Positions 24,605-48,672 of a stretch of DNA of 64,000 nt are shown piece by piece. Position 1 is the stretch's first letter. Each line of letters starts with the position of its first letter. The stretch spans positions 16,554,001 through 16,618,000 of the forward strand of contig CM097886.1 in NCBI GenBank assembly GCA_044892525.1. Direction: 5' to 3'. Under the pieces are notes generated by a model. The model saw only the letters and a list, made by a program, of their open reading frames with translations. It was not told where the DNA came from and ran no database searches. The position numbers and the translations under genes were made by a program. The DNA comes from Schmidtea polychroa. Its lineage: Eukaryota.

Positions 24605-26963
24605 TTGAAATACCAAAACTTTTGTAATAGTCAATATCATAATGACTGCGATGATATAATGGAAAGATATTATAGTCATAAATATAACGGTGTCACCTAC
24701 ATCCTATGCCCTAAATGTGAGGTTATTGAAGTTATAACGTATAAGGAATTTTATAATAAGCATAGACTCCATCTCCAACAATTTAAACCTTCTAAGAAGT
24801 CTCTTTTCTATAGCTTANNNNNNNNNNNNNNNNNNNNNNNNNNNNNNNNNNNNNNNNNNNNNNNNNNNNNNNNNNNNNNNNNNNNNNNNNNNNNNNNNNN
24901 NNNNNNNNNNNNNNNNNNNNNNNNNNNNNNNNNNNNNNNNNNNNNNNNNNNNNNNNNNNNNNNNNNNNNNNNNNNNNNNNNNNNNNNNNNNNNNNNNNNN
25001 NNNNNNNNNNNNNNNNNNNNNNNNNNNNNNNNNNNNNNNNNNNNNNNNNNNNNNNNNNNNNNNNNNNNNNATACTAACAACACCAATAATAATGATATAA
25101 ACGAAATAACTAAACTAAAAGATCAAGTAAATAAATTAAATGATCAAATAAATAATCTAATTAATATGAATAAAAGAAAAAATAATGAAAAAATAAATTC
25201 AATACCAAGTAAAAAATCTAAAGTTATTGATGTAATTACAATAAGTGATGATGAAATAATCAACATAAGTGATGATGAAATTGATAATAGTAGTAGTAGT
25301 AGTAATATTTATTATAATAATAATGGTAATAATAATAATAATAATATTAATCAAATAGGTTATGGTGTCGTAGATGTCACCAGTGATTTAAATAATAATC
25401 ATATTATATTAAAAATGGACGTTTCGTCTTTAGATTTAAAAACGGTCTTTGTTCCAGACATTTTAATAAATAAATTAAAATTATATGTAAATAAATTAAA
25501 ATCATGTAAAATTCAATTTTGTCTAAAGGTGGAATTTATAAAAGATGATGAGTTACAATCTTTTGTAATCTCGAATTCCGCCCGAGTTTGGAGCGATACA
25601 TTCATTGACGAAGGTATTGCTCGTTTAAATGAAAAAATAATTAAAATTAATGAGAAAGGTAGTAATTGGACTATCAATAAAATAGAATACATAAGCTTTG
25701 TTCTTACTAAATTTGCTGAAATAAGTCGGTTAAGTGGTAGAAGTTTTATTGAAACCCCAAAATCTTTAAGAAACTTAAGCTGTCTCGTTAATGTAGTTAA
25801 TAATGACCACTTCTGTTTTTTGTATAGTTTCTTGTCAATTATTAAATATGATAGTATAAATAGGCAATATAGAAATCGCCCTAATTCATACAATCTTTCT
25901 GAAATTAAATTTGATCCTAATGATATGCCGATGAAACTATCAAATATAAGTAAATTTGAACAACAAAATCCAGGTTATAGTATAAATGTTCTTACTTATA
26001 ACGAAAAGGCTTTGATTGACATTTCCGATGAAGATGCAGTTATGAAACATCCCTTTATTGATATAATATACAGGAGTAAGATAGTAGGAGCCATACCTAT
26101 CAATTTATTATTAATTAAAAAGAATGATGATTATCATTATCTTGGAATCACAGACCTAAATAGATTCCTTAATTGTAGGAATAGTTCAATCACTCTTGTT
26201 AGGATTTGTAGTCAGTGGTGCCCTAGATGTTTAAACGGTTTTAGAAATGATGACGCTTTTAATAGACATAAGGGTCTTTGCGATAAAAATCAGCTTGGTA
26301 CTACCTTGTACACATTGCCTAAAAATAAATATTTAGAATTTACTGATTGGAGTAAAACAGTCACTCCTCCCTTTGTTATTTACGCTGACTTTGAGGCTAT
26401 CTTACCTAAAGACACTCGCTACTTTCAACGTCATCTGCCTATTTCTGCCGGTATGCTTTTTATTAATAATTTTACGGGCGTAAAAATTTATAAGTCGTTC
26501 ACCGGTTTAGATTGTGTCGATCAATTTCTTACTGAAATTGAAATGATAGGGAAATATATTGTAACTCCTTATTATTATAAAAATTATCAAAAGAAAATGA
26601 TAATTACAGATGAGCAACAATTAATGTTTGAAAACAGCACATCATGCTATTTGTGCAATAAGCCTTTAGTTAGTCCAGTTAGGGACCATGATCATTTTAC
26701 AGGTCTATATCTCGGTGCCGCTTGTACAACTTGTAATCTGTCGAGGCAAATTAGACATACCCTTCCTGTAGTATTTCATAATTTAAAGGGTTATGATCTG
26801 CATCATATCTTGAAATTTGGCCTTTCAAAATATCATTCATGGAATATTAGTTGTATTCCTTTAACCAGCGAGAAATTCCTTAGTCTTTTTGCTAGGATTG
26901 ACTCATTAACTGTTAAATTTATAGACTCTTATCAATTTGTCAGCGAGTCTTTAAATAATGCTG
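24605..26963 (+). pseudogene. polB: Protein-primed family B DNA polymerase, 5' part (interrupted)
   Basis: ExoI VIYADFEA, endonuclease-VII-like CYLC...DHDHFTG...AACTTCNL, ExoII FHNLKGYD, DSYQFVSESL. The frame is conserved across the masked 24818-25070 tract. The true start codon is uncertain. Confidence 0.92.
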
Positions 26964-28559
26964 TGTTGGGCTAGAACTGATTTCTAGACCCAAAGTTAGG
27001 AATGGGACGAAATGTGTCAGTACACAACACGCATACCCAGCATTAAGTTTACTTAAATAAAAATATATAAAACACCAAGTAAACAATGATAATAGAGAGA
27101 TAATATACCCAAAAATAAAACATCTGAATTAAAAATAAAATAAAACACGAGCAAGAAGTATTACACGAAAACTTACTCAAATATAACCAAAAGACATAAA
27201 ACAACAAAAAACAAATTCGAATAAAGGCAATTAGTAAAAATTAAAAAAGAAAATTAAAGAAAATCTTCATAAAATCTTACGTAAAGAAAATTATATCGAT
27301 ATTTTGAATAAAAATCCAGAACAATTCATAAAAATGGCGAAATCCATCATGACGGCCAAACGACCCAATAAAATTTATAAAAAATAAATATTTTAGTTTA
27401 AAAAATAAATATTTTAGAAAAGAAATCATAAAAAACAATTTAAAAATAAGAAATAGATTAAATTTAGCATGGAATGTTCTGGAAATGCTGAAATCCATCA
27501 TGGAGGCAAATTTAATAAAAAATAATTCGAAAATAAAATTTCAAAAATAAAAACAAAAATTCTTACTGAAAAATCGCCATTAAAATCGATAAAAATTAAA
27601 AATCGAATGTTCGAGAATTAAAATAATTCGAATTTGTTTTACTGCATCAATGCACGCATGTATACTTACACGTCAAACAGAGGCTATATAAACTAACACA
27701 TTTCGTCACTTTTTAAGCAAGGAAAATATGCTAATGCTTACTCTTATGCCAAATTTTTGGGTTTTGATTTTTTCTGAGATTGTAGGTAAGAACGATTTCA
27801 TTGTGAATTATAAATTATTATTATTGAAACCTTGTTTTCATTATTTCTTTCTAACTATAGAAATGTAGGTTTGAGTGAGATCGTCGGTTATCATTGATTT
27901 TGAAGCGAGATCCCAGCCAACCCTGCACCTATGCACTTTATCATCGATGAGTACACAGTTCACAATGATTGCAGGCCACTGCCTGGCACGCACTTATCAA
28001 TATTATTGGTTTCCTTTTGTTCGGTCATCGGAGGTCGGCCACTTCATGGTTCTACCATGGAGTTGTGTCGATAAAACCCCTCCGCTATGGCTCCATATAT
28101 TTATTTATCGGTCGACAGCGATGTTTCGACTCCACACAACAGTAAGGTTTGTCGTAGTGGTCACAGTGGGGCCGCGAAAGCAAACACTCTTCCCGACTTT
28201 CAATGCATGAATAATTTACATAGTTAAAATCTACATCCAAAATCATCACAATACAATACACTAAGGTTAATAAACAGAGTAGATCTCAGACCTAAATTAA
28301 TCACAACTCTACAATTCACAATTAATGTAGACGGTTAAATATCATCAAGAACCAACTCTACCTATACGTTTGTCGAATCTAGATTTATAAATGTCTTAAA
28401 TAAATTTTCTAGTAATAGTTTAAAGTAAAGATTGTTTAAAAATGAGTGATTTAGTAGTGATAGTATTCATAAAGGTGTTCGACATGCGCATCAGCAAGAC
28501 TTGGATTTTAAATTGAATAGACTCTAAACTAACTATAAAAATTCAAATCGTAAACCCAT

Positions 28560-29230
28560 AACAGTATAAATTATCCTCTCAATTTCATAAAAATGTGAAT
28601 TATACTTATAGATTTAATTTCTTCAAAATATAAATTATGATTAGTTATAAAGGTATAAATTATAAATTTAATTTCTTGAAATTATAAATTACAAATTTGT
28701 ATTGACGATGAAAATTATAAATTATAACTCTAAGTTAATTATAAAAGTATAAATTATAATCTTAACTTCATAAAAATATAAATTATAAAATTATATTAGC
28801 TTTGGAAATATAAACTATAAATTGAACTTCACCAAATATAAATTATAAACTTAAAAGTATAAATTATAAAATTATATGGGCTCTAAAATATAAACTATAA
28901 ATTTAACTTCATAAAAATATAAATTATAAAATTATATTAGCTTTAAAATATAAACTATAAATTTAACTTCATAAAAATATAAATTATAAAATTATATTAG
29001 CTTTAAAATATAAACTATAAATTTAACTTAACTTCATAAAATATAAATTATAAACTCAAAAGTATAAATTATAAAATTATATTAGCTTTAAAAACATAAA
29101 CTATAAATTTAATTTCATAAAAATATAAACTTATATTGGCTGAAAGACTATAAATTATAATCTTAATTTGGTCATAAAAGTATAAAATATAAACTACGTT
29201 AGCGATAAAAATATAATCTATAAAAAGTTG
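28560..29230. repeat. AT-rich TATAAATTATAAAA satellite inside the LTR (also ~44825-45495)
   Basis: Recurring tataaattataaaattatattagctttaaaatataaac units with a period of ~60 bp. Confidence 0.85.
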
Positions 29231-29239
29231 TAAATATTT

Positions 29240-30260
29240 TATAAATACCCCCCCAAGTTACGTAATGGTCGAAACAAATGTCCAGATTCATAATCTAACT
29301 TATATATGTATATTTGAAACTTATAAAAGTATAACTTACCTTTTTCGTGAGTACCCCCCTCAAACTATACATTAGTCGAGAACAATATATATAGCAATAA
29401 ATTAACTTATATATGTGCAGTTATCAAACTTAATAATTCCTCAGATCACCTAACCATTAATTATTGTCTAAATACATTAATACATTATCTTTACGATATA
29501 AATTTGGAAAATTTTGATAAATGACCCCCCTTAATTCATATAACCATTAACCACTACCTGATACACTAATTTAGACTATTTAATATATATGCTTAACTTA
29601 GATTACCTTTAAAATTATAGTTGAAAAATTTTCATCAAAGACCCCCACAAACCATATAGTCATCAACTACCACCTAAATATACTAAATTAGCTTATCTTA
29701 ATATACATTTAATTTATATTATATTTAAAAATATAAATTGTAAATTTTTATGAATGACCCCCTCAGAATCATACAGTCACTACCCATTACCTAAGCATAC
29801 TAAATTAACTTATTTTAATATATATTTAACTATCAGTATATTTAAAATTCTAAATTGGAAATTTTCATAACTGACCCCCTCAAAATTATACATTCATTGT
29901 CCATTACTTAAATATACTAAATTGACTCATTTTTAATATATATTTAACTTATATTATATTTAAAAATGTAAATTGTAAATGTTCACACATGACCCCCCCC
30001 CCCCCTCAAACTTATACATACTAAATTGGCTTATTTTAATATATATTTAACTTACATTATAATAAAAAATATAAGTGGTAAAATTTCCTAAATGACCCCC
30101 CTCAAATTATATATTTATCTAAATTTACACTAAGATAGACTACTATTATATATATATGTATATGTGTGTGTGTATATGTGTATGTGTATATATATGTATA
30201 TATTCATCTTATATTTGATTTTAAAATGATAACTCTTAAAATTCCTAAATGACCCCCAAG
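29240..30260. repeat. Degenerate ~105-160-bp tandem array marked by ATGACCCCCCTCAAA inside the LTR (also ~45505-46520)
   Basis: C-tract motif recurs near 29247, 29352, 29521, 29641, 29755, 29875, 29989, 30092 and 30250, with shared atactaaatt...ttatttttaatatatatttaac context. Confidence 0.85.
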
Positions 30261-30961
30261 CTATATACCCGTGGTAATTTCATAAAGATATCAAGGTACA
30301 TTCGCCGTTTATCATTATTGTTATTTTAACATTACTGCTACTATCATTAGTATTACTATTACATTTTATTGATATCATTGATTTTATTTTCCCCAGTAAC
30401 CCCACTAAACTGATTATATTATTAAAGTAATTATTATTTCTTAAAAATAAAATTTTAAACAAAATTATCGATTTTGGGATTCCCCTATCTCTAAATTTAG
30501 TCTCGATGGCCCTATCTTCCAATAAAATTACGGAAAATCACGAAAATCTATTTTTAGTAACACCCCTCCCCCCTGAAAACGACATCAATATTATTAATTT
30601 AAATTATATCCATATATAGGTATGTGTGTATATGTATATGTATGTATATATATATGTGTGTGTGTGTATATATATATATAGGTGTGTGTGTATGTACATA
30701 CAGATTTATAAAGCAACCTTATAAAAATACGATAACCTTCCCCCTCAAGACCCCTGTTATGTGATGGTCACAACCCCCTTAAGGTGATGGAGCGAGGTTA
30801 GAGTAGTTTACTGAAGTAATTTAGTAGAATCATTTATTGATTTATTAGAATTATTGGATTTATTTTTAACTAAATCAAAAGAGACTAAATTTATTTTTAA
30901 CTAGATCAAAAAAAGGAAAAAGAAAAACAAAGACTAAGTTTATTGATTTCGATCATCAACT

Positions 30962-31427
30962 TTATTCATATAATTGTTTCTTTGAATCATAGTTATACCA
31001 AGGTCCTTCGAGCACGGTTGATGGACCATCCCAATGAAATACATTTCCTGGAGTTGGAAGACTTCTGGGTAATTCCTTATTTTCTGCTTCGTTCCTTTTG
31101 GTTCAATGACTTACATATTGATTTGACGTAATATTGTTGGATGGCCAACTATATTCCTTGCATCTCTTTTTGAGTAGTCATTGTCAGATAATTCCGCCAG
31201 GAAGATTAGTTGGTGGAACTGACCTTGGGGCAATCAAACCTTCGTACCTCACTGAATTATTATCAACTCGATTGCTAAGGAAATTAATGAAGTTAATTAA
31301 TTAAATTAAGGAAGTTAATTACAATTTTCTCATTGGTGTTGTCAAACGATCTTTGCTCATTCGAGATGTCATAATACATTATTGATCAATAGTAATTGTT
31401 CGGAGATTCGGCCGACTGCTGATATTC
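30962..31427 (-). pseudogene. Antisense spliced ORF inside the 5' LTR (48-nt intron 31322-31275), interrupted by stops
   Basis: ATG at 31372: MTSRMSKDRLTTPMRK|FNRVDNNSVRYEGLIAPRSVPPTNLPGGII*Q*LLKKRCKEYSWPSNNITSNQYVSH*TKRNEAENKELPRSLPTPGNVFHWDGPSTVLEGPWYNYDSKKQLYE*. An upstream 54-nt GT..AG intron is possible at 31481-31428. Confidence 0.55.
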
Positions 31428-32414
31428 CTGAAATATTATGAAATTTTAGGATATAAATGCTTAAAATTTTAATTTATTTACATTATTATATCAAAATTAA
31501 CTAAAATCATATATTTATTCAAAATTTGTTATTTAACATTAATTATAATTACTATAATAAAACAACGAAAATTTAAATAATGTTAAATAACTTTAACAAA
31601 ACAAAAAGTAATAATGAAATCAAAATTCCATTACTTTATTTAAATTATTAGTTACCAACTTGTTCTAGTATTTTAACATAATGAATTCAAGTATATTACG
31701 GAGTTAGTTTGGTCATTTGAGGAATATTATAAATTGAAAATTTAAGTAGATTAGAATTATTTACTCTTCATAAGAACTTTTATGATTGTAATGAATCTAA
31801 ACTTCATATATTAATATTACCCATAATTTACAAGTGATATTTGGATTATGTTAAAATAGGTTGTAAGTTAACTTAACTAAATTGAAATTCTCTTTTGATC
31901 AGGTTATCGTGGGGAATGCATGTTATCTTTATCATTTCTATTGTTTCAGTTTATTAAGTTTTTTTTTTATTTTCTAATTAAATTCATTAGTCTCAAAAAT
32001 TTCTTGAGGTTTGTTTAATAAACTATGGTTATGTTTCACTTAATTTATATTCAAACATTTTAGATGTGGTGTTGTATGAACAGGCTTTAATAGAGTAATG
32101 TATGATTCCTGATGACTTATGATCGTTTGAGGATAGAAAGTTTGTATAGGCATAGTTGAGGAAGTGATTATAATAAGGGACCTGCGTAAATCGGACATAC
32201 ATCTTCTAACGATAGTCCGTGAACCCATTAGAGTGCTCGACAATTACAGTGCAAGTAGTGCGCTCACTTTTTGCGAGTACTCACCCTCTTGATACAGTAC
32301 CAACGTTGATCGTTCAACGGGTATCAAGCGGTAAACAATGTTGTATTCTGGGTTACGCTGGAAACAGCACTAAAGAACAAAATATTTGATCATCAGTAAC
32401 CCACCATACAAATT

Positions 32415-32432
32415 TGGGGGCTCAGCCGGGAT
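32415..32432 (+). other. Primer-binding site, tRNA-Pro-like
   Basis: TGGGGGCTCAGCCGGGAT, 16/18 identical to the canonical tRNA-Pro PBS TGGGGGCTCGTCCGGGAT, 8 nt after the LTR end. Confidence 0.85.
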
Positions 32433-33307
32433 CTTAAACTTTCTTGGTAAAGGAACCTGTAAATAGACGGGAATACATAGCGTTTTTTTGATCAGGAAAT
32501 GAAATGCTTTATGCAAGAGTAAGAAAGATTGTTTTCTCAAATAAATAAACATGATGTGTGAATATGCGTGTATGATCAAAATGAATGTTGAATGTTGTAC
32601 ATGATGAATAAAAAGTTTCAAATTATGTAAATATAGAAAATCGATGAAACTAGATATGAGAATAATGCATGAGCGTTCCGTGTTGATGGGATAGAATGTT
32701 GATGGGTAAGAAATGAAAAAAAAAAAAAAAAAAAAAATCAAAAATAATAAAAATTGTAAATATAAACAACTAATACTTTGTAAATATAAGAAAATAATAA
32801 AAAACTCAAAAATAGGGAAAAGGGGGGATAGAAGATAACGGTATATAGAAAAAGGGGATAAAGCATAAAACAGTGAATTGCGAAATAGAAATAGATAGGT
32901 GATGCAATTAATTAAAAATAGGGGGAAGATGTAAAAATAAGTTAAAGATTAAAGGGTTATATTGAGTACTTGATCAAATGACTAAAATTAATGACACGCT
33001 GGGATCAAAAGGGTTACGTAGACTAAGATAATAAACTAGAGGGAACGAATAAGAATGCGCGGAACATCATTTAATGGATTGGGAGCCTAAACTAACAGGG
33101 TAAAACAGCTATTGAACATACTTAATTTGAATAAGGAAATAAATGGGTAGAGGTAAGCTAATTAAAGGGGAATAAGAACACTTAATAAAATTCTGAATTA
33201 ATAAAGTATAACTTGATGGAATTAACCGGCTACATTATAAAGAAACTTGAAAATTCGTAAATTTAACTAACAACTCACTACAAAGATTGAATTGAAAAGC
33301 AGAGCAG

Positions 33308-33719
33308 TTGGCAAACATCCAAGAAGGACTGATCTTAAAACCAAGACCAGTTGATGATGAATTGTGTATAATGACGAGAATTGCTACACCAAATGTGGAA
33401 TTAACTACTCAAAGAGTATATCAGATTCAGAATTTACGTTTAGATAAGGCCAAATTTAACATCAAATGGCAAGAATTAAAGATAAAAATTTAAACGGTTG
33501 AAGATGCGATAAGAGAGGCGATCGATAATGAGTTCAAATGTTGTGTGTGTAGAAGCAATGAGATAAAAATAATGATGGTACATTGCGGACATCGATGTTA
33601 TTACCAAGATTATGCATTGAAACTGAAACCATTGTAATGTATGTGATGCAAACGTGAGAGAAAGAGTAGTAGTATACATCCCTAAGGGAGATGTAGAAAA
33701 ATTAAAGATGATGAAATGA
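33308..33719 (+). pseudogene. Decayed coiled-coil + IAP/MDM2-type C3HC4 RING finger ORF
   Basis: ...KIKI*TVEDAIREAIDNEFKCCVCRSNEIKIMMVHCGHRCY[Y]QD[Y]ALKLK, a +1 shift, then CNVCDANVRERVVVYIP. Spacing fits C-x2-C-x11-C-G-H-x3-C-x2-C...C-x2-C, with the 5th and 6th ligands as TAC/TAT (Tyr). Confidence 0.75.
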
Positions 33720-34425
33720 ATTGCTGCTGAGTGTGAGTTAGTAAAAAGTTAGTAAAACTAATTCCATAATAGCAACCGAAAGGTATAAAACATACGTTGA
33801 ACATAGACATATGAAATACACAAAAGCCGTTAAATAAATAGACAAGCAACACACAAATTAAATTGGCGAAAGCCGTGAATTAAATACAGGACTGGCTGGG
33901 ATCGCATCAAGTGTGAGCTGATCTATAAGATCAGTACGATTACCATTTTTTTTTCCTGTTTTTTTTTTATTTTTGGCATAGAGAGACAGGACCATAAGGG
34001 GATGAGAAGCATATCGTCCCTACGATGCTTACCCGGATGGGGAAATCCTGATCACCTTGATGAGAAGAGTATAGTAGGGCCCATCGCAAATGTTGGGGAG
34101 TTTCTGTCGAGTGACTGATCACCACTTGTGGGAAATGAACCAACGCGATTATTATATTTTTTGAATTTGGGAGACAAGGACAAACTAGAAGGTAAATAAA
34201 AAGAAAAAGATAAAAAATAAAAATTGAAAAGGTGCACCAAAAGATAAAAATTTTAATTATCCGAGAGCAGCTGCGGATTTGAAGAAACCGTTTTTGGACT
34301 TCAAATTGGATGATATGAATTTTTCCCTAGCGAGTGATGAGGCACCCGAGTACAGCGGCTAACCACCGGACTGTAGTGTCCAGGAGATTATCAGCCAAGG
34401 GTCTGATGATGCTGGATCACCCAAT

Positions 34426-34990
34426 ACAAAAACCCGGATACCCACACCGAGTATTGGGTGCATTTTTTTTTGATTGGCTAGCGGGACTTGATACAAAAAC
34501 CCGGAAGGGTAGCGAGCGAGAGAGACCCAGTTACCTACACCGAGTATTAAGGAGCCCAGTGAAACGGTTGTGAGATGCGGGTCAACCGGTAAAGGACTCG
34601 TACTCAACAGGCAACCAAGATTGGACCAGTTGTGAGGCGGGAGACCGAGAGTCAACTGCATATCCAATTTCCTTTTATCTTCACTAGTCGGGAGATCTGG
34701 TTCATCACTTTTGAGAATCAAGATCGAGGCGATTAGGCATTTCCGTGTTTTTTAAATCCTGATAGATAGGATGTTTTTTCTTCGTGATTATTGCTAGCAG
34801 GGGTCGGTACAAAACCCGGATGCCCACACCGAGTACCGATAGGCCCAGTGAAACGGCGATGAGATTAGGGTTACCGGTATTAAACTCTTTTCAATAGGCG
34901 GCCAAGAATTGAGCTAGTTGTGAGGCCTCAGCAGATTAATAATTTGAGTAGGAGGAACCTTAAATTTTTAATTGGTCCGAAAGTCAACTG
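34426..34990. repeat. Degenerate direct repeats in the element's 5' leader
   Basis: acaaaa(a)cccgga...cacaccgagta at 34426, 34494 and 34809. The block cccagtgaaacgg...agttgtgaggc...gtcaactg occurs at ~34556 and ~34845. Confidence 0.8.
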
Positions 34991-35110
34991 TCAACTCAAT
35001 TTAATCGCGGTAGGGACGATAGTAGGTGTAAAAACTGAAGGCGTCTGGGGGTTGAAGAAACCTCATTTAGGGCATTTGAAACCGATCAGGGACCGAAGAC
35101 CGCGAATACG

Positions 35111-35480
35111 GCGTAAAGGTGTAAAAGCCCAGGCGTCTAGGAGTCGTAAAAGACTTCAAAGATTAAAAGTATAATTAAACCGGCCGGAAGCCGATGCCGA
35201 CGCGGAGGTCTAATAAACCGAAGCGTTGATGGTTGATAGTGAATTATATGGCGTAACGGTGTAAGAACCCAGGCGTCTAGGAGTCGTAAAAGACTTCAAA
35301 GTTTAAAATATGATTAAACCGGCCGGAAGCCGATGCCGACGCGGAGGTTTAATAAACCGAAGCGTTGATGGTTGATAGTGAATTATATGGCGTAATGGTG
35401 TTAAAGCCCAGGCGTCTAGGAGTCGTAAAAGACTTCATGAGATTAAAATGAGTTGATTAAACCGGCCAGAGAGCCGATGG
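35111..35480. repeat. 139-bp tandem repeat (2 full copies + 1 partial, with a degenerate tail to ~35600)
   Basis: ggcgtaa.ggtgt..aagcccaggcgtctaggagtcgtaaaagacttca...aaaccggcc...gccgatg starts at 35111, 35250 and 35389. Confidence 0.92.
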
Positions 35481-36052
35481 TAATTGAATGAAAATAAATG
35501 ATTTAAATGAAATAAGAGAGGTGATTAAACCAGCCAGGGAGCCGATGGTAAATAAATGTAGACGTAGAGGTCGCGCGAACCGAAGCGTCGATGATTAACT
35601 ATGAACGAAATAAAAGAGATAAACGATTAAGATGAAATCGATTAAATTGACATAGATTAAGTGCGACAAAGAGGTAATGATTAAAGGAAAATTATGATAG
35701 AGCGCCGGCGCAAGAGAAACTGAAACCAAATTTTTGAATGGGGAAAAGCGAATGAGGAGACGTTAATTAAGTTACTGATGAGTTTTATATGTATATGACT
35801 AATGATATATGTTTTCAATTATATAATTGATGTTGTGATTATATGATAGATAATTGATACGACGATATAGATAATTCATACGAGTTATAGATAATTAAAA
35901 ACGGACTTAAATTCAAAGGGGGTGAGTAACAAAAAGTAAAAGCGTACCATGAATTAGAAAAGGAACAACGAGAGAAATAATGAGTAAAGAGTAGTATAAA
36001 ATAAGGGAAATAAGGAAATAAATGAAGGGTAGGATAAAATGAATAAAATATT

Positions 36053-37861
36053 ATGATATGTACTAGGAGTGTTAATTATTTTAGAATAAAGCAAACCATT
36101 CAGAAGGAAATCAATAGAAGCCAAGAATTCAAGAGTAATAAAGAGAAATCAAAAATTCAAAAGAAACCAAGCAAAGAATCAAGAGAATCAAACGAGGATA
36201 GAAGAAAGGTAAACAAAGTCAAATTAAATACCAAGAGGAAAATTAAAGCGTTGGCCAACGAAACACAGTGAAATTCAAAAGAGATTATTAAAGCAAGAAA
36301 AATTGATAATAAAGCCAATCGAACGAGATCGCAGAGCAAAGGAGGCTCTAGTTTATTAGGAAACGCAGGGAGACAAAGAGCCAAGAGAAACAGAAGAATC
36401 AATAAGAAACCAGCGTCAGTGAAAACATTATTTGAATCAGACAGCTTAACCAACGAAAGTGAAAACAGCGACAATATTAAAAGAAACGAATTATATCCGG
36501 TAACTGATATCAAACCAACAGACAAGGAAGATAGTAGTTCAGACATAACAAGTTTGTGTCGAGATATAATGTTAGACGGAAACCAAGTGAACAACCCGAA
36601 TGGGTCAGAGTCGACATACACACCGGAGATAAACCATGTCAACGTCAATGTTGGAGAATTTAGAGAAAGATTTCGAGGAGAACCATTCGATGGGAATATT
36701 AATGAACTAGAAACGTTTATAAAAGAATTCGAGGTATATATTACGATATGTCACTGGCCAGACATAGTCGTACGAGAGCGAATACCATTATATTTAAGAG
36801 GAAGTGCACAAGATGTATATTTAGAGGCAAAGTGTGATGCAACAAAACTAAAAACATGGAAATCAATAAAGAATTTTTTAATAAAAACATTCGGTAGCAA
36901 AAGGGAAGTAAATCGCAAAATGTTGGATTTTCTGCATCGAAAGCAGAAATACAATGAGTCAAACGCACTATATGCATGTGAATTAAGACGACTGGCAAAA
37001 GAAGCATTCGATTCAAATCAAACAGTTCCGGAAGACAAGATAATAGCCGTATTCGTAGAGGGATTGAAAAGAAAGGACATACGAGCAACAGTGGGGTGCC
37101 GAGCACCAGACACGCTCGAGGAAGCATTAAAAATCGCTAATAAATGCGAAAACTACTTGACTCCAGTACAAGTAGCAGCAATGGCAGCAGTACCAATAGC
37201 TACAACACCAACAACGACAACCGAAATTAATCAAACCAACAATGGAAATCTAGGAATGAATCAATTTATCTCAGAATCGCAACAGTTCTTCAAGGCGCCA
37301 AAAACGACAAATCCAGATAACAGAGGTAATATTCAATTTTACACTAATAATTTCAGGAACAACGAGAACAATAATCGGAAGTGTAACATATGTCAACGAC
37401 TAGGACATTGGAGCAACGAGTGTTATAAGACAAGGATATGCCAAAATTGCGGTAAAAGGGGTCACACAGAAAATATATGCCGAGGACCAATGATGTCGAT
37501 GAGAGGAGGAAGGACTAGAACCTGCTACAGTTGCAACCAACTTGGACATGTGGCGAGAGAATGCGCGATGAGGACAAAGCATAATCAACCAAGAGCAAAC
37601 GAGTCAAGTCAAAATATACAAGTCAACATCATGCAGGAAATAGGACAGTTGAAAAAGATGATCCAACGGATACCAGAGGATATCCAAAAACGACCAACAA
37701 GAGAACAAAAAGATCAGCAACGAATCGAAGGGCAGAGACCACTAAACGAAAAAGCCAGAGAAATTCAAAAAGATGGAAAAGCGAGAAACCAACACCGGAA
37801 GAATAAATATGATGAGATTAATGAACAAAGGGGAACCGCACACTGCGGAGCAGTGTGTTAA
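36053..37861 (+). CDS. gag: Retrotransposon Gag with three CCHC zinc knuckles (one in-frame TGA at 36269-36271)
   Basis: Capsid-like FDGNINELETFIKEFE...LYLRGSAQDVY...FVEGLKRKDIR. Knuckles CNICQRLGHWSNEC, CQNCGKRGHTENIC and CYSCNQLGHVAREC. ORFs 36053 and 36419 are in the same frame. Confidence 0.9.
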
Positions 37862-40800
37862 CAAGGAAGGGAGCGATATGACCGTAATCAACGAGACAAA
37901 AGTGATAAAAGAAAATGGGTCACATCAATTGACGGAGCAATTGACAGAACTGAGTAGCGAGGATAAAATAAAAATAATACAAGGGTTCACCAAAGAAGAA
38001 AAAGAAAAGAGACGAAGAAGAGATGAAACAGGGCACGAACCAAAAAGCAACGAGATTGTTACAAAGAATCGAATTCAGAGGGTATTACTACAAAAAATTG
38101 AAAATAGAATTAGAAGAGAAGAACCAAATTTAACGGATGAGCAAGTAAAAGAAAAAGTAAAAGACAACTGGTTCAGGAAAAATGAGTGGTTCGAAAAGAA
38201 AGAACCAAGTAATAGAGCCAATATAAACATGCTGAGACAAATACAGAAGGATCAGACGGACCAGGAAGACGAGAAAAGTGCGGTGAGTAGCCTGAGAAGT
38301 GAATTATTTCAATCAAGTGATGAAAATAATGAACAAGGAACACCTCAAATTAACGAAGAGGGTGAGAGCGACGATATGGAATCACCGATAGAAAATGACG
38401 ATGAGGAAATATTTGAGGAAATTTCCGACACGGTATCGGAAAGAGAACGAAATGAGAGCTATATCAACGAACCAACATACAGAAAATGTATAAAACTGAT
38501 AACTCAAGCATACCAGTGGGAAGGAGGTATATTAACGGCAACATGGAAAGATTTGGCGACGAAATATAAAGGAAAATTGAAAGAAGTTGATCCAGATCAA
38601 TACCAAGTAGGTATTCAACACCCTGAAACTCAGATGCAGATTATTGAATTAAAAGTAACAAATATCGATGAACTGTATAATTGGGTACAGGAAAAGATGG
38701 GAACAAGTCATAAGAATAAACAACTATACGATAATGGTTACAAAGTTAAAATGAGCATACATCTAGTAGATATGATGAGATGGCCAAACGAAGTTAATAT
38801 CTTAATCTTAAAGAAAAACAGAGACAGCGAATCAGTAACGGAAATACTGAGGAAAATCCAACAGATATTCAACAATGAAGTGGAACCAGAAATAGAAAAG
38901 ACTGAACAAAAGATAATGAAGGAAAATCAAATAATCGTAGTAAAACAAGCAATCGATCAAGCGAAGAAATATATTAACAGATTTAGGGAAAGATGGCCGC
39001 AGCTAATGAAACAGTTTGTCAAAGACGTACGGGATACTGAGATTATGGGATTTGAATATAAACGAGCAACGGAGTTGATATCAAAATATGGTGAATACGA
39101 GAGAATCAGATGTGAACAAGAATTACCATGGCCATCCAACAGAAAAGTGACAATAGTAAGAGAATCACTGAAGAATAGTCATTTAAATAAACACGAAGAA
39201 ATGATCAAAACATCACATGTCGAAGACGACATTTTTGGAAAAGGCCGGAGTGGAAAAAATGACAAAGACCATAACGACAAAAATGAGGAAGACGACGGGA
39301 ACCATGAAAGGAACAACATAAATGGGAACTCAAACGAACGAGATAATGAAGAAGACAAGGAGTCAGAAGATGACGACGAAGACTTGAAGGATACTGAGGA
39401 CAACTCAGACCAAAGTGAAGACAACCAACATAATGAAACAGAGAACGACAAACGAAAGTCCCCACTGCATAACATAGTAATGCGGAAGAATCTAAACCAG
39501 TCACTCCTACTACAAATTATCCTAATAATACTAACGTCAATTTGCCTAACAGAAACGAAAAATACGCGAATTACGAGAGGAAATCTGAAAGAAGGCGAAC
39601 TATTCATGATAAAAGTCAGCGGCAACAACGGAAACGCGGTCGGGATATGCATCCAATTGATGGAAGGAACCGGAGTAAGTTGTGATTTTAGAACGATAAC
39701 AAAAGGGAGGATTTTCAATAGTTAAAATGGAGAACCTGAATTATGCGGAGACTACAACATTTGCGAAGACATAACATCAGAAGAAAAAGAATTGGAAAGA
39801 GCTAACGAAACCGGAGTACATGTCGCAATTAAAACTACAATGGAAGGTATCGAAATAATAGATAAAGGAAATTTGCCAACAACGCAAATATGTTTTAGAG
39901 ATGACGAAGACATATGTATAACGGTAGACATGAAACGAGATCGCGAATTTTTTTGGACAAACGTAAAACCAAACACCAACATGGTGGTATGCGCAGGTAC
40001 CCAGGCAATAGTGGTATGTAAAGCAGTTAAAACCGCGCAAATAAAAAGCAGGCCAAAAAGTATGGCTAGTAAAAGATATCAACCAAGGATCAAACCGGCA
40101 ATTAAGAAACCCCAGAAACAATCCCGTACGGGAATGATAAGAGGACAGCACCAAACCAAGAAAAACACAACAGTAATATGGATCAAATATGAGAGACGAG
40201 AAGTACTAGTAAATGTCGAATTCAACAAGAAAAGAGAAGAAGTAATCACGGTCAGAAACCAAGGTGAAGAACCAATAGTAAGAGTATGTGTACTAAACAG
40301 GACAGGAATAGTCGACTGCATAGAAACACTACTTGACAAAGGTGCAGAAGTTAAAATGACAATAGGAGAAAGAAAGGGACGATACCACATATGCGTTCTT
40401 AAAAACGGAAGCGATTTAAGTTCATGCCAAGCAATAACCAGACAACGACCACGGTTGATAAACATACCATTGGCAACCAGAAAACCAAAAGAAGTGGAAA
40501 AGCCAAAAGGAAACGAACATCTAACGGCAGAAGAAACGAAACAGTTATACCAGATGCTCAAGAAAAATAAAACACAGGAGGCAACTACAACAGAAACTAA
40601 AATGATGATGACGACAGGAAAATTCAACAACAAGACACTGATAACCGTTAAAATGATGTGGATCGCTAGCGCAATAATGAGTGCAGTGATAACATCAATA
40701 ATAATCCAATGGATAAGAACCTCCAAAATATGTAAACAAAAACCTAAAGGCAGAAAAAGATGGCCACAAGTGGAGAATTCCGAATATGGTATTCCAACAG

Positions 40801-40988
40801 AAGACCCGAATCCAGAAGAGTACGAAGCGATTGAAGATCCAAGGTCAAGCAGACTATGGACGCAAGAATTACTCAGAATACAAACCCTAGACGATTGGGT
40901 AACCGAATTTGACATATACCGGCTAACGGATGAAAGATATGGGGGAATGCGCACATTGCATTCAGGTCCCCTGGCAACAATGGTATAA
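37773..40988 (+). CDS. Charged/coiled-coil region followed by an internal signal-like segment, a Cys-paired ectodomain, a TM helix and a tail (env-like); one in-frame TAA at 39723-39725
   Basis: ORFs 37773 and 39792 share a frame with a single stop between them. Hydrophobic LLLQIILIILTSICLT, six Cys pairs, six N-x-S/T sequons, TM MMWIASAIMSAVITSIIIQWI, basic RTSKICKQKPKGRKR. Confidence 0.75.
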
Positions 40989-43227
40989 GAAAGTGATGAG
41001 TCGATGTAAATAGTGTGTAGATAAACGTGAGGGTAAAAGTAGTTTAGTAGATTAGCAATATGTTCAAAAAAAAATGTAAAAAAAAAAAAAAAAAAAAAAA
41101 AAAGGTACAAAAAAAAAAGGTACAAAACAAAAAGGTACAAAAAAAATGGGTATGATAACTACGTATTATAAATAAATCAGAGAAACGAGGATCAAGTATA
41201 TCAAACGAGGATACCACATGTTGTTGAATTGGGAAATCAACCACTAGTAAACATTAATCAGACATAAATAGTAGAAATTGATACAAGTACAACGATAAAC
41301 CAACCAAGTTAGTCAGCAGGATCAATGTGAAGAACACAATGTGAATTAATGACAAATGACAAACCATACCCAAGAATAACGGTTACGTAATTAGAATGCG
41401 TTAATGGGGAGCATCAATAGAAACTCGATATATATAACAAGAATGAAAGAGCAATAACAAATAATCGCACAATTAAAATACAATAACAAACAGTTGATAA
41501 GCCAAATAAAATGGGAGGCAGGAGAAATCGGGAGATTACACGAAAACCATCAGTATGATGATATAACGAGTTAAGTTGAGTGGATAACTGGCCTACCAGG
41601 AACTGGGGAACCGGACTCAGCGGGAGACATAAAAGAAGGGGAAAGTAGCCCTGTAAACAAACAAAATTATAGCCAAAGTAGAAGCTCCGAGATTAAACGC
41701 TATCATGGCAGAATGGCGAGAGAAAGTGGAGAGAAGTGGAGGAACAAAACTATTAACTATGAGCTGATAAGAAAATATTAGGTCAAGTCCGATGAATTCG
41801 AGGAGAGACTATTGTGTGCGGACAAAGATTATTAATAAGAGCACGTCAGACCCTATGAGGATGTAGACTATGACATGGAGGTACCACACGACTTGTAACA
41901 AGAAAAGCAGTAGCTAAAGAGAGAACCACAGCAAGCATCAGCCACATCCCAGATGACAATAATAATAAAAATCTTAGAAGAAAAAAAAAAAAAAGCAGCA
42001 AATAATGATGACTGTCAACAAATGTCCGAGCAACTATGAAACAAAGACACTCGAAGAAATAAAGGAAAGGGTAAATAACGCAGTCAAAGAAAAGCCAATT
42101 ACTCAAGATGAAATAATAAAAACATTGAGAGAGATATAGATGGAAATAATAACAACTATGAACAAAATCCCCATGAACCATGAGACAATAACCAAAACTT
42201 TAGAAGGAATAAAAAGGAGAATATCAACTACCTTCGACGAAGACTTCGCTTACTAAAATGTCCTAATAAAGATAGGGAAAAGAGTAATGATGACAGTCAA
42301 CAAAACCCTACACACTAAATCAAATAACCTCGAAGAGGAACTCAACTCGACTGATACAATCCAACTAATGAAAACAGTGAGCATGTGACGAGAGATAAAG
42401 AAAGAAGTGGCAATCAAAACAAGGTCAACAGAGAAAAAATAAATAAATAAAAAAAAAAAAATAAATAAATAAATTTGAATGTAAAGAAAACCCCGAATCC
42501 ATAACAGTACTGATCCTGTTAGCAGCGAATCTCATGATAAATAACAATACTGAACTTGATAGCCTTTAAACCTACTCAAATCCATAGAAGTACAAAAACT
42601 CAAGTTGAAAGAACAATTCCGAAGCATTCGCATTCTAATAGAAGAACCAATACCCAGAGACCAAATCTATCAAATCTATCAAATCTATCTTCTAAAATCT
42701 TCAAATCTAGAGCCGTCATCGAGATGAGATCCCAAACAACCGAGTGTTTAAATCCTGATATAAACCGACAATGATCCTGATATAATCTGACAACGATCTT
42801 GAGTTGATTGAAAATGTTCTTATTATGTGTTGACAATGATCCTGATTCGATTGACAATGATCTGAAAATGATCTAAATTTGATTTAACAATGATCCTGAC
42901 ATGATTCGACAATGATATGATTTGACTATTATTGTGATTTGATGCCAATATTATATATTACTTTGATATTATTTGAGCATAACAATTTGATTAAATTTTG
43001 TGTGGACCGACCGTGGTCTTCTTTCTCTTCAACTTTAAACCAATCTGTAGCATGTAGCGTATCAGTAGAAACTTTTTATGTATGTGGGTATTGAGGTCAC
43101 GACCCTGTAGCTCGTGGACCCAATTACATGTAGGCACTTGTAATACAGTGCAACCAATTCTGTCTAATTATATCTTGAACTTTGATTAAATTGCGGGTCG
43201 CAATTTTATGGGCCCCCGAGTGTTTTA

Positions 43228-46200
43228 TGTTGGGCTAGAACTGATTTCTAGACCCAAAGTTAGGAATGGGACGAAATGTGTCAGTACACAACACGCATAC
43301 CCAGCATTAAGTTTACTTAAATAAAAATATATAAAACACCAAGTAAACAATGATAATAGAGAGATAATATACCCAAAAATAAAACATCTGAATTAAAAAT
43401 AAAATAAAACACGAGCAAGAAGTATTACACGAAAACTTACTCAAATATAACCAAAAGACATAAAACAACAAAAAACAAATTCGAATAAAGGCAATTAGTA
43501 AAAATTAAAAAAGAAAATTAAAGAAAATCTTCATAAAATCTTACGTAAAGAAAATTATATCGATATTTTGAATAAAAATCCAGAACAATTCATAAAAATG
43601 GCGAAATCCATCATGACGGCCAAACGACCCAATAAAATTTATAAAAAATAAATATTTTAGTTTAAAAAATAAATATTTTAGAAAAGAAATCATAAAAAAC
43701 AATTTAAAAATAAGAAATAGATTAAATTTAGCATGGAATGTTCTGGAAATGCTGAAATCCATCATGGAGGCAAATTTAATAAAAAATAATTCGAAAATAA
43801 AATTTCAAAAATAAAAACAAAAATTCTTACTGAAAAATCGCCATTAAAATCGATAAAAATTAAAAATCGAATGTTCGAGAATTAAAATAATTCGAATTTG
43901 TTTTACTGCATCAATGCACGCATGTATACTTACACGTCAAACAGAGGCTATATAAACTAACACATTTCGTCACTTTTTAAGCAAGGAAAATATGCTAATG
44001 CTTACTCTTATGCCAAATTTTTGGGTTTTGATTTTTTCTGAGATTGTAGGTAAGAACGATTTCATTGTGAATTATAAATTATTATTATTGAAACCTTGTT
44101 TTCATTATTTCTTTCTAACTATAGAAATGTAGGTTTGAGTGAGATCGTCGGTTATCATTGATTTTGAAGCGAGATCCCAGCCAACCCTGCACCTATGCAC
44201 TTTATCATCGATGAGTACACAGTTCACAATGATTGCAGGCCACTGCCTGGCACGCACTTATCAATATTATTGGTTTCCTTTTGTTCGGTCATCGGAGGTC
44301 GGCCACTTCATGGTTCTACCATGGAGTTGTGTCGATAAAACCCCTCCGCTATGGCTCCATATATTTATTTATCGGTCGACAGCGATGTTTCGACTCCACA
44401 CAACAGTAAGGTTTGTCGTAGTGGTCACAGTGGGGCCGCGAAAGCAAACACTCTTCCCGACTTTCAATGCATGAATAATTTACATAGTTAAAATCTACAT
44501 CCAAAATCATCACAATACAATACACTAAGGTTAATAAACAGAGTAGATCTCAGACCTAAATTAATCACAACTCTACAATTCACAATTAATGTAGACGGTT
44601 AAATATCATCAAGAACCAACTCTACCTATACGTTTGTCGAATCTAGATTTATAAATGTCTTAAATAAATTTTCTAGTAATAGTTTAAAGTAAAGATTGTT
44701 TAAAAATGATTGATTTAGTAGTGATAGTATTCATAAAGGTGTTCGACATGCGCATCAGCAAGACTTGGATTTTAAATTGAATAGACTCTAAACTAACTAT
44801 AAAAATTCAAATCGTAAACCCATAACAGTATAAATTATCCTCTCAATTTCATAAAAATGTGAATTATACTTATAGATTTAATTTCTTCAAAATATAAATT
44901 ATGATTAGTTATAAAGGTATAAATTATAAATTTAATTTCTTGAAATTATAAATTACAAATTTGTATTGACGATGAAAATTATAAATTATAACTCTAAGTT
45001 AATTATAAAAGTATAAATTATAATCTTAACTTCATAAAAATATAAATTATAAAATTATATTAGCTTTGGAAATATAAACTATAAATTGAACTTCACCAAA
45101 TATAAATTATAAACTTAAAAGTATAAATTATAAAATTATATGGGCTCTAAAATATAAACTATAAATTTAACTTCATAAAAATATAAATTATAAAATTATA
45201 TTAGCTTTAAAATATAAACTATAAATTTAACTTCATAAAAATATAAATTATAAAATTATATTAGCTTTAAAATATAAACTATAAATTTAACTTAACTTCA
45301 TAAAATATAAATTATAAACTCAAAAGTATAAATTATAAAATTATATTAGCTTTAAAAACATAAACTATAAATTTAATTTCATAAAAATATAAACTTATAT
45401 TGGCTGAAAGACTATAAATTATAATCTTAATTTGGTCATAAAAGTATAAAATATAAACTACGTTAGCGATAAAAATATAATCTATAAAAAGTTGTAAATA
45501 TTTTATAAATACCCCCCCAAGTTACGTAATGGTCGAAACAAATGTCCAGATTCATAATCTAACTTATATATGTATATTTGAAACTTATAAAAGTATAACT
45601 TACCTTTTTCGTGAGTACCCCCCTCAAACTATACATTAGTCGAGAACAATATATATAGCAATAAATTAACTTATATATGTGCAGTTATCAAACTTAATAA
45701 TTCCTCAGATCACCTAACCATTAATTATTGTCTAAATACATTAATACATTATCTTTACGATATAAATTTGGAAAATTTTGATAAATGACCCCCCTTAATT
45801 CATATAACCATTAACCACTACCTGATACACTAATTTAGACTATTTAATATATATGCTTAACTTAGATTACCTTTAAAATTATAGTTGAAAAATTTTCATC
45901 AAAGACCCCCACAAACCATATAGTCATCAACTACCACCTAAATATACTAAATTAGCTTATCTTAATATACATTTAATTTATATTATATTTAAAAATATAA
46001 ATTGTAAATTTTTATGAATGACCCCCTCAGAATCATACAGTCACTACCCATTACCTAAGCATACTAAATTAACTTATTTTAATATATATTTAACTATCAG
46101 TATATTTAAAATTCTAAATTGGAAATTTTCATAACTGACCCCCTCAAAATTATACATTCATTGTCCATTACTTAAATATACTAAATTGACTCATTTTTAA

Positions 46201-48668
46201 TATATATTTAACTTATATTATATTTAAAAATGTAAATTGTAAATGTTCACACATGACCCCCCCCCCCTCAAACTTATACATACTAAATTGGCTTATTTTA
46301 ATATATATTTAACTTACATTATAATAAAAAATATAAGTGGTAAAATTTCCTAAATGACCCCCCTCAAATTATATATTTATCTAAATTTACACTAAGATAG
46401 ACTACTATTATATATATATGTATATGTGTGTGTGTATATGTGTATGTGTATATATATGTATATATTCATCTTATATTTGATTTTAAAATGATAACTCTTA
46501 AAATTCCTAAATGACCCCCAAGCTATATACCCGTGGTAATTTCATAAAGATATCAAGGTACATTCGCCGTTTATCATTATTGTTATTTTAACATTACTGC
46601 TACTATCATTAGTATTACTATTACATTTTATTGATATCATTGATTTTATTTTCCCCAGTAACCCCACTAAACTGATTATATTATTAAAGTAATTATTATT
46701 TCTTAAAAATAAAATTTTAAACAAAATTATCGATTTTGGGATTCCCCTATCTCTAAATTTAGTCTCGATGGCCCTATCTTCCAATAAAATTACGGAAAAT
46801 CACGAAAATCTATTTTTAGTAACACCCCTCCCCCCTGAAAACGACATCAATATTATTAATTTAAATTATATCCATATATAGGTATGTGTGTATATGTATA
46901 TGTATGTATATATATATGTGTGTGTGTGTATATATATATATAGGTGTGTGTGTATGTACATACAGATTTATAAAGCAACCTTATAAAAATACGATAACCT
47001 TCCCCCTCAAGACCCCTGTTATGTGATGGTCACAACCCCCTTAAGGTGATGGAGCGAGGTTAGAGTAGTTTACTGAAGTAATTTAGTAGAATCATTTATT
47101 GATTTATTAGAATTATTGGATTTATTTTTAACTAAATCAAAAGAGACTAAATTTATTTTTAACTAGATCAAAAAAAGGAAAAAGAAAAACAAAGACTAAG
47201 TTTATTGATTTCGATCATCAACTTTATTCATATAATTGTTTCTTTGAATCATAGTTATACCAAGGTCCTTCGAGCACGGTTGATGGACCATCCCAATGAA
47301 ATACATTTCCTGGAGTTGGAAGACTTCTGGGTAATTCCTTATTTTCTGCTTCGTTCCTTTTGGTTCAATGACTTACATATTGATTTGACGTAATATTGTT
47401 GGATGGCCAACTATATTCCTTGCATCTCTTTTTGAGTAGTCATTGTCAGATAATTCCGCCAGGAAGATTAGTTGGTGGAACTGACCTTGGGGCAATCAAA
47501 CCTTCGTACCTCACTGAATTATTATCAACTCGATTGCTAAGGAAATTAATGAAGTTAATTAATTAAATTAAGGAAGTTAATTACAATTTTCTCATTGGTG
47601 TTGTCAAACGATCTTTGCTCATTCGAGATGTCATAATACATTATTGATCAATAGTAATTGTTCGGAGATTCGGCCGACTGCTGATATTCCTGAAATATTA
47701 TGAAATTTTAGGATATAAATGCTTAAAATTTTAATTTATTTACATTATTATATCAAAATTAACTAAAATCATATATTTATTCAAAATTTGTTATTTAACA
47801 TTAATTATAATTACTATAATAAAACAACGAAAATTTAAATAATGTTAAATAACTTTAACAAAACAAAAAGTAATAATGAAATCAAAATTCCATTACTTTA
47901 TTTAAATTATTAGTTACCAACTTGTTCTAGTATTTTAACATAATGAATTCAAGTATATTACGGAGTTAGTTTGGTCATTTGAGGAATATTATAAATTGAA
48001 AATTTAAGTAGATTAGAATTATTTACTCTTCATAAGAACTTTTATGATTGTAATGAATCTAAACTTCATATATTAATATTACCCATAATTTACAAGTGAT
48101 ATTTGGATTATGTTAAAATAGGTTGTAAGTTAACTTAACTAAATTGAAATTCTCTTTTGATCAGGTTATCGTGGGGAATGCATGTTATCTTTATCATTTC
48201 TATTGTTTCAGTTTATTAAGTTTTTTTTTTATTTTCTAATTAAATTCATTAGTCTCAAAAATTTCTTGAGGTTTGTTTAATAAACTATGGTTATGTTTCA
48301 CTTAATTTATATTCAAACATTTTAGATGTGGTGTTGTATGAACAGGCTTTAATAGAGTAATGTATGATTCCTGATGACTTATGATCGTTTGAGGATAGAA
48401 AGTTTGTATAGGCATAGTTGAGGAAGTGATTATAATAAGGGACCTGCGTAAATCGGACATACATCTTCTAACGATAGTCCGTGAACCCATTAGAGTGCTC
48501 GACAATTACAGTGCAAGTAGTGCGCTCACTTTTTGCGAGTACTCACCCTCTTGATACAGTACCAACGTTGATCGTTCAACGGGTATCAAGCGGTAAACAA
48601 TGTTGTATTCTGGGTTACGCTGGAAACAGCACTAAAGAACAAAATATTTGATCATCAGTAACCCACCA
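43228..48668 (+). repeat. 3' LTR (5441 bp)
   Basis: Near-identical to 26964-32406; starts TGTTGGG, ends CCCACCA, followed by TSD GCTG. Confidence 0.96.
47224..47689 (-). pseudogene. Second copy of the LTR antisense spliced ORF
   Basis: Same sequence as 30962-31427 at offset 16262. Confidence 0.55.
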
Positions 48669-48672
48669 GCTG

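Follow-up and report, generated by a model that had tools for sequence, protein, structure and literature searches.

Giant gypsy elements of planarians, described as Burro or GYPSM1, have long terminal repeats (LTRs) of ~5 kb, a Gag with three CCHC motifs and an env that lies between gag and pol in the same frame; the Burro polyprotein is given as 4,873 aa (PMC6431247). Burro elements are described as abundant and as expressed on knock-down of the piRNA pathway (PMC11410931, PMC8532177, PMC13238120), and GAG-ENV-POL errantiviruses with a gB-type Env are documented in Platyhelminthes, Nematoda and Bryozoa (PMC13524379). Elements of the MDG1 group with sORF2 are without Env and encode another membrane protein (bioRxiv 10.1101/2025.03.14.642691). 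Coding families without Pol are already known. As described in PMC2410132, Pol-less Athila elements of Arabidopsis consist of LTRs and gag, or of gag and a membrane open reading frame (ORF), their intact ORFs are under purifying selection, they are mobilised in trans by other families, autonomous and non-autonomous lines recombine, and there are 3-31 copies per family. TR-GAG elements of plants, in which the gag ORF is kept and the enzymes are missing, have been termed semi-autonomous (PMC13570524). No such family was found reported for Burro: the Burro section of PMC6431247 has no mention of a non-autonomous family, or of a second signal-ectodomain-transmembrane (TM) module at the end of the polyprotein, and a literature search returned neither; Grohme et al. 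2018 with its supplements, or Repbase, could already list one. The element analysed here lies at positions 26964-48668 of a 64,000-nucleotide stretch of the genome of Schmidtea polychroa (GCA_044892525.1, contig CM097886.1, positions 16,554,001 to 16,618,000 of the forward strand), referred to below as the window. It is 21.7 kb long, its two LTRs are 99.945% identical (1 mismatch and one 2-nt gap), and it is a member of what we call family A.

Family A numbers ~107 copies, is young and has one internal deletion common to every copy. It has lost the Pol and Env of the 35-kb Burro-type element from which it derives, and probably transposes with the protease (PR), reverse transcriptase (RT) and integrase (IN) of an autonomous relative, family B. 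A 701-nt query gave 425 candidate places, 40 of which were scored, and the 39 scored places other than the window were fetched; with 40 of 60 further listed sites of a motif specific to A (one site in three was skipped) and 3 more, the total came to 82 copies. As far as they can be aligned, the 39 long stretches all run collinear with the window, and none holds an extra block at the position of pol. The A-specific motif, positioned left of the deletion junction, occurs at 107 genome sites, with the junction at the expected distance in 105; the two exceptional sites proved on inspection to be collinear with the window, as did 30/30 loci inspected, so the junction is present at 107/107 sites. 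An A-type LTR-end motif occurs at 118 sites. Twenty of these were fetched, and A-type gag followed by pol was not present in any of them: 6 belong to a B subfamily with the B polyprotein, 3 are truncated B-type elements, 3 are full A elements and 8 are truncated or rearranged. In a capsid tree of 27 rows (locus L138 was too short to include), a single branch of 0.19, with support of 86/100, holds the 11 A rows, and no Pol-bearing row falls on that branch. A preliminary description, made from the letters of the window alone, had proposed a Pol-less family of this kind that borrows Pol from an autonomous partner, and both the family and such a partner, with the same LTR ends and primer-binding site (PBS) plus pol, were found when looked for.

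The PBS sequence occurs at 1,077 genome sites, the first 30 of which comprise 2 in family A, 11 in family B, which has the same LTR end, and 17 in other families. Five B copies fetched whole are ~35-38 kb long, and their LTRs match at 99.3-99.98%; the ORF, of 4,791 codons, is unbroken in one of them and broken in the other four. Target-site duplications (TSDs) of 4 bp flank all three of the autonomous B copies that were read, and the B LTR-end motif is present at no fewer than 188 sites, a lower bound. Pfam recognises CCHC, MATH, fusion glycoprotein (class III-type; PF24664, E 5e-69), RT, RNase H (RH), integrase and ankyrin domains in the B polyprotein, with the protease below cut-off, and TRAF and IAP (BIR) domains in its 3' ORFs. 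The order along the polyprotein is Gag, MATH, ubiquitin-like, BCL2-like, Env, PR, dUTPase-like, RT, RH, IN and ankyrin, the ubiquitin-like, BCL2-like and dUTPase-like labels having been placed from PMC6431247 and by eye, without a Pfam hit. By its domain sequence, B is a Burro-type Gag-Env-Pol element.

A and B share a common ancestor. Residues 5-951 of A match B residues 6-967 (72%), residues 949-980 match 1248-1278 and residues 964-1571 match 4184-4791 (55%). Two deletions, jointly in frame, removed ~3,200 residues, and with them the ubiquitin-like, BCL2-like, Env, PR, dUTPase-like, RT, RH, IN and ankyrin regions and most of MATH; a third loss removed most of the 3' accessory ORFs. The partner's PR, RT, RNase H, integrase and fusion Env domains, used as tblastn queries, gave no match in the interior of the window (best E 0.55-8.1), consistent with the absence of these enzymes as first described, and a control element in the same search gave E 3e-36 or better. 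Judged against Burro, A is 21.7 kb in total (Burro >30 kb, B ~35 kb) with LTRs of 5.4 kb, retains retrotrans_gag and the three CCHC motifs, lacks the Env/PR/RT/RH/IN polyprotein and the MATH/BCL2-like/ankyrin/BIR cargo, and is collinear with the Burro-type element over the LTR ends, leader, gag and 3' region. The membrane protein kept by A corresponds to the last ~600 residues of the B polyprotein, downstream of integrase and ankyrin. The preliminary reading of it as an env moved beside gag does not hold, since the partner's Env, the PF24664 domain, lies in frame between gag and pol and is deleted from A; B Env compared with the interior of the window gave E 0.55, no homology. By alignment, the retained protein is not Env but the terminal signal-ectodomain-TM module of Burro, and the fusion of Gag to a TM protein therefore represents the two ends of a polyprotein of known kind and not a new design. 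A and B generally differ by ~20-30% outside one block of the leader, and A came from a B-like autonomous lineage not found now.

The features of the window copy are listed below, the strand given as + or, for the TSD, as not applicable.

26960..26963, no strand: left TSD, GCTG, 4 bp; right copy at 48669-48672
26964..32406, +: 5' LTR, 5,443 bp
32415..32432, +: PBS, tRNA-Pro(TGG), 8 nt past the LTR end and inside a 42-nt block identical to an autonomous copy
33251..33683, +: RING-finger-like leader ORF, the decayed remnant of a 160-aa ORF, with two near-fixed stops (29/30 and 37/39 copies)
34250..35450, +: leader block, non-coding, near-identical to the autonomous family in the A-B comparison; candidate packaging region
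36047..36271, +: upstream frame of 74 codons that ends at a fixed TGA in the copy alignment and lies outside the polyprotein
36272..40988, +: main coding region, ~1,571 codons in intact copies; broken in this copy near 37770 and at 39723
36683..37159, +: Ty3/gypsy capsid domain (PF19259 E 2.4e-7, PF03732 E 5.4e-6); partner 90% identical
37382..37564, +: three CCHC zinc knuckles
37565..39119, +: charged post-Gag region, 67-79% identical to partner polyprotein residues ~433-967, with two candidate protease-site motifs kept
39120..39200, +: MATH scrap of 27 residues between two deletion junctions, by comparison with the partner
39492..39548, +: internal signal-like hydrophobic segment, by hydropathy only
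39549..40652, +: predicted ectodomain, ~367 aa, with 12 Cys all common to the partner and five N-glycan sequons
40653..40985, +: predicted TM helix (40653-40709) and ~92-aa tail, by hydropathy
41172..42744, +: decayed remains of 3' accessory ORFs of the partner (from the 153-aa ORF, the beginning of the TRAF ORF and the 341-aa ORF); the IAP ORF has been deleted, with two more
43186..43244, +: 59-nt block over the 3' LTR junction, identical to an autonomous copy, with a hairpin and GC-rich motif
43228..48668, +: 3' LTR, 5,441 bp

The LTRs, TSD, PBS and gag, with its capsid and three CCHC motifs, are thus as the preliminary description had them. The 18-nt PBS pairs, by sequence match, with the 3' end of the host tRNA-Pro(TGG), and the 160-aa leader ORF, which we label RING-finger-like from its Cys pattern, is open in 5/5 autonomous copies. 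A polypurine tract is not present ahead of the 3' LTR (43186-43227), nor in families B, D and E (D055, D064, E051 and E057 inspected). In A, B, D and E alike, a short hairpin and then a GC-rich motif precede the 3' LTR, and by eye the motif might pair with the PBS.

In the window the interior is divided into three tandem sense frames, 36272-37861, 37746-39725 and 39726-40988, with breaks at exactly the places first described: a TGA at 36,269, a frame offset near 37,770 and a stop at 39,723. The offset is read through in 35/39 copies, and so is the stop at 39,723 (again 35/39); both are therefore lesions, as had been supposed. The same does not apply to the TGA, which is a stop in 78/78 copies that cover the position; the autonomous family has a stop at the matching place and its matching upstream frame holds several more. 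The first shared ATG is at residue 100 (window position 36,569) in 79/79 rows. With the TGA fixed and this ATG shared, the natural frame is ~1,571 codons from stop to stop and 1,472 from the ATG, and the 1,644-aa ORF obtained by repairing all three breaks exists in no copy examined. A single natural ORF from the capsid to the TM helix, as proposed, is present in most copies, namely 47 of the 82 other than the window (22/39 and 25/43); the ORF of one of the 47 ends prematurely within the tail, and the 5' end is not covered in 4 copies of the second set of 43. Readthrough of the TGA was considered and ruled out, as the upstream frame is unselected among A copies and holds several stops in B. The 99 codons ahead of the shared ATG (36272-36568) are open, are constrained against B (ratio of non-synonymous to synonymous change, dN/dS, 0.34) and are homologous in D and E, and 12/39 copies have an ATG at codon 11 of the frame; translation may begin at a non-AUG codon or from a spliced start.

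The A insertions are recent. In the 10 A copies checked, the LTR pairs are 97.9-99.96% identical, and 8/10 have their own 4-bp TSD; near-identical LTR pairs with distinct TSDs argue for real transposition. A copies differ from each other by up to ~5%, and their sites are on all four of the large contigs. In its leader (34300-35050) the window copy groups with an A sub-lineage, L042 and L022, and its ORF lesions are common to L011, L012 and L023. By this pattern the window copy is likely a recombinant between A copies.

The ends of A are those of B. Exact blocks of 42 nt at the junction of the 5' LTR and PBS and of 59 nt at the 3' LTR junction are common to the two families; the only such exact match of A to families C, D and E is one 20-mer, at the PBS. 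The leader was compared in 43 A and 30-31 B copies. A-B identity is 91-97% at 34400-35400, with 3 fixed differences, a level about that within B, and 74-78% at 33200-34000, with 131 fixed differences. In a tree of the leader block (73/74 rows), A is a clade with a stem of 0.007 placed among the B rows, versus 0.19 in the capsid. Within the block, diversity in B is approximately halved and the A-B distance is down several-fold; as the distance between families falls far more than the diversity within B, the leader is read as captured, and the A leader block likely derives from B by recombination, the simplest route being a template switch inside a particle that the two families share. The block folds no better than shuffled sequences (z -1.6).

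Four ORFs that are open in B and abandoned in A have accumulated 8 near-fixed stops in ~563 codons, whereas the main ORF has 0 in 1,472 (Poisson 8e-10). Within Gag, amino-acid changes are scarcer among variants shared by A copies than among singletons (33:24 versus 73:19, p 0.009; 83 rows), and among the 83 rows 26 stops are singletons and 1 is present in four or more copies. These comparisons give moderate support for recent purifying selection on Gag, since the loss of pol. Over the whole ORF the contrast of singleton and shared variants is not significant (p 0.23).

From hydropathy, Cys residues and sequons, a type I surface protein is predicted for the terminal module, with the signal-like segment and TM helix on either side of the 367-residue stretch. 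In an alignment-guided model of the ectodomain (mean pLDDT 41), residues 217-299 (~40197-40445) form a 7-stranded sandwich with pLDDT ~60-80. Its best match to Ig-like domains (Z 8.6, rmsd 2.7, 71 aligned) is middling and not far above unrelated rows, and one Ig-like domain is predicted on this basis; a motif that we take by eye to be FN3-like is also present. A single-sequence model of the module was unusable (pLDDT 36). Searches for homologues were empty: only poor alignments came from the BFVD fold search (TM at most 0.20 by query), the 2 hits of phmmer among 1.84 billion representatives were ankyrin-repeat proteins and were treated as noise, the ESM Atlas had no usable hit for the ectodomain (best score 0.86 for one domain), and Pfam and PDB sequence searches with a 14-row alignment of the module gave nothing above cut-off. 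A search of long proteins with Gag found 0/828 candidates, weak evidence. These results show neither novelty nor absence of relatives. A terminal signal-ectodomain-TM module is present in all three of the Pol-bearing Burro-type families examined, B, D and E, and the D and E polyproteins (L197, L200, L203, L206, L211) end in a signal, a shorter ectodomain, a TM helix and a tail that are ~25% identical to the last domain of A. A reading as a short fusogen of the sORF2 or FAST type was rejected, the module having ~480 residues past the signal. The chances that the module is still functional in A are about even; if active, it most likely acts as an attachment or accessory protein beside the fusogen of B and is not itself the fusogen.

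The shared termini and leader suggest that A is mobilised in trans by an autonomous family. Most simply, the Gag of A would co-assemble with the polyprotein of B in mixed capsids and would favour A's own RNA, which carries the B-like leader; the RT of B would prime on tRNA-Pro, its integrase would act on the shared ends, and the enzymes of B would cut, copy and insert A. Two of the six instances in B of a recurring motif, a candidate protease site defined by one strict pattern, are kept in A. The C-terminal module could be threaded into the endoplasmic reticulum by means of its internal signal and then, once released, stand as a type I protein at the surface of the cell or particle, and A, having no fusogen, would leave the cell only in the envelope of B. 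A more elaborate picture, which we think unlikely, is that Burro-type elements are enveloped viruses that make a class III-type fusogen and an Ig-like partner from one polyprotein, with A as a satellite that has a captured packaging leader, its own capsid and its own divergent second surface protein and that steers or competes for helper particles.

Several observations weigh against transposition of A with the enzymes of B, or against a role in it for the whole of the retained ORF. The nesting of the A leader among B rows rests on a midpoint root and a rough bootstrap, with constraint or DNA-level conversion as possible contributors. Between A and B, dN/dS is 0.06-0.43 across the regions of the main ORF, but these values were not accepted as proof that selection continued once pol had been lost, since the abandoned ORFs also give 0.13; they mostly record the time before the losses. 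No purifying signal is present among A copies in the post-Gag region (p 0.16) or in the membrane module, where the difference is in the opposite direction (91:29 shared versus 110:51 singletons, p 0.18) and dN/dS for shared variants is 0.93 in the ectodomain and 1.23 in the TM helix and tail. Lesions common to several copies are all downstream of Gag, those in 2-6 copies being at or past residue ~498, and lesions within Gag are all singletons. The broken ORF type of the window itself is present in 4/83 rows, with different TSDs in the two that were checked, and so in at least two independent insertions; together with the shared downstream lesions, this means that the module is not needed in cis. 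That only Gag matters to the satellite, the membrane module being an in-frame passenger that is now drifting, would account for these patterns and in our judgement falls just short of an even chance. The module has, however, no fixed stop in 511 codons, versus the 8 per ~563 of the abandoned ORFs (Poisson 7e-4), the two deletions jointly keep the frame, and all 12 ectodomain Cys match those of B, a conservation that may largely predate the loss of pol.

The identity of the helper is a separate question. The RT of families D and E is 92% identical to that of B and their IN 82%, their PBS is for tRNA-Pro like that of A, their 3' hairpin is related, and either of them, or any Burro-type family, could also help A. 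That such a family is the helper and not B in particular is nevertheless improbable, given that their LTR ends are unlike those of A, with the one 20-mer in common, and that their Gag region is only 29-36% identical to that of A. An autonomous parent of A's own, absent from the assembly or missed by exact-match patterns, would fit the distance between A and B (dS 0.5-2.5), most of which accrued while the accessory ORFs of A still worked, and two orphan sites with an A-type PBS, with 18 more that were unlisted, fall outside the fetched set; with the junction at every A-specific site, a capsid branch free of Pol-bearing rows and a B-like leader in A, we consider such a parent equally doubtful. 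Spread of one dead deletion by DNA duplication, and not by retrotransposition, is suggested by some copies in tandem that share an LTR (for example, at the left flank of L013), but is scarcely credible for a family in which 8/10 copies have different 4-bp TSDs, flanks are distinct, LTR pairs are near-identical within copies that differ by up to ~5% from one another, and all four large contigs are occupied. We retain transposition of A with the enzymes of B as by far the most probable account.

Other sequences related to A and B were encountered. Members of a B subfamily (L134, L136, L137, L139, L143, L144) have the 39-nt LTR-end and PBS motif of A and are nearest to A in the leader tree. L208-L209 is a tandem array of another B-derived unit, with PBS sites ~15.8 kb apart; the unit ends just past the start of gag and holds a duplicated 322-codon antisense ORF. 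The family C copy at L193-L195 has the same PBS, an 877-codon Gag-like ORF and no match to B pol in 30 kb, and family C is possibly a second Pol-less family, or this is one damaged copy. Contigs of run X1, for which the RNA label is guessed, cover 30/30 bins, one piece spanning both junctions, those of run X2 cover 22/30 at low depth, and run X10 contributed no reads; none of this is counted as evidence. No splice joint was seen in these contigs, and contigs cannot show starts. The tRNA-Pro(TGG) genes are in large tandem arrays with a 475-bp unit (L081), with 2,190 pattern matches genome-wide.

The window copy is inserted within an ORF for a protein-primed family B DNA polymerase (window positions 24575-26963 and 48669-50279), the right part of which matches PF03175 (E 8e-21) and the left part of which has an endonuclease VII-like match below cut-off; the ORF presumably comes from a Polinton-like element. 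A hAT transposase ORF (PF14291, PF05699) is at 20150-22069 on the minus strand, and an 801-codon ORF at 52254-54659, also on the minus strand, is hydrophobic at its C-terminus and matches no Pfam family.

Provided that most copies are of full length, A would occupy ~2 Mb of the genome (107 x 21.7 kb), and RT-based repeat surveys would miss a family of this kind. A and B would constitute satellite and helper in a pair of giant retroelements that have both been active recently in the genome of one animal, and the natural deletion points to the cis needs of a Burro RNA as the LTR ends, the PBS, the ~1-kb leader block and, seemingly, its own Gag. The partner families of soybean, in which autonomous and non-autonomous elements are said (Du et al., 2010) to swap LTR sequences, resemble A and B in the exchange of cis sequences, but in A the exchange is in the leader and not in the LTR body. 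As far as Burro is described in PMC6431247, B has its domain order, in the 4,791-codon ORF, and its TRAF and IAP accessory ORFs, whereas A, at 21.7 kb and without Env, Pol and accessory ORFs, is a separate family. B likewise fits the GAG-ENV-POL errantiviruses (PMC13524379), with PF24664 between gag and pol, and A is without that glycoprotein. The sORF2 product, as presented in bioRxiv 10.1101/2025.03.14.642691, is a short protein in Pol-bearing elements, unlike the ~480-aa module of A with its Cys-rich ectodomain. In comparison with TR-GAG, as outlined in PMC13570524, A is much larger: it encodes ~1,100 more residues, as well as a predicted surface protein. The closest parallel is Athila, in the terms of PMC2410132, also a Pol-less family that keeps gag and membrane coding; there, however, the env-like gene is a separate ORF, whereas in A the fusogen has been lost and a different membrane module is in frame with Gag, and A resides in an animal host, with approximately three times as many copies or more and with very young insertions.

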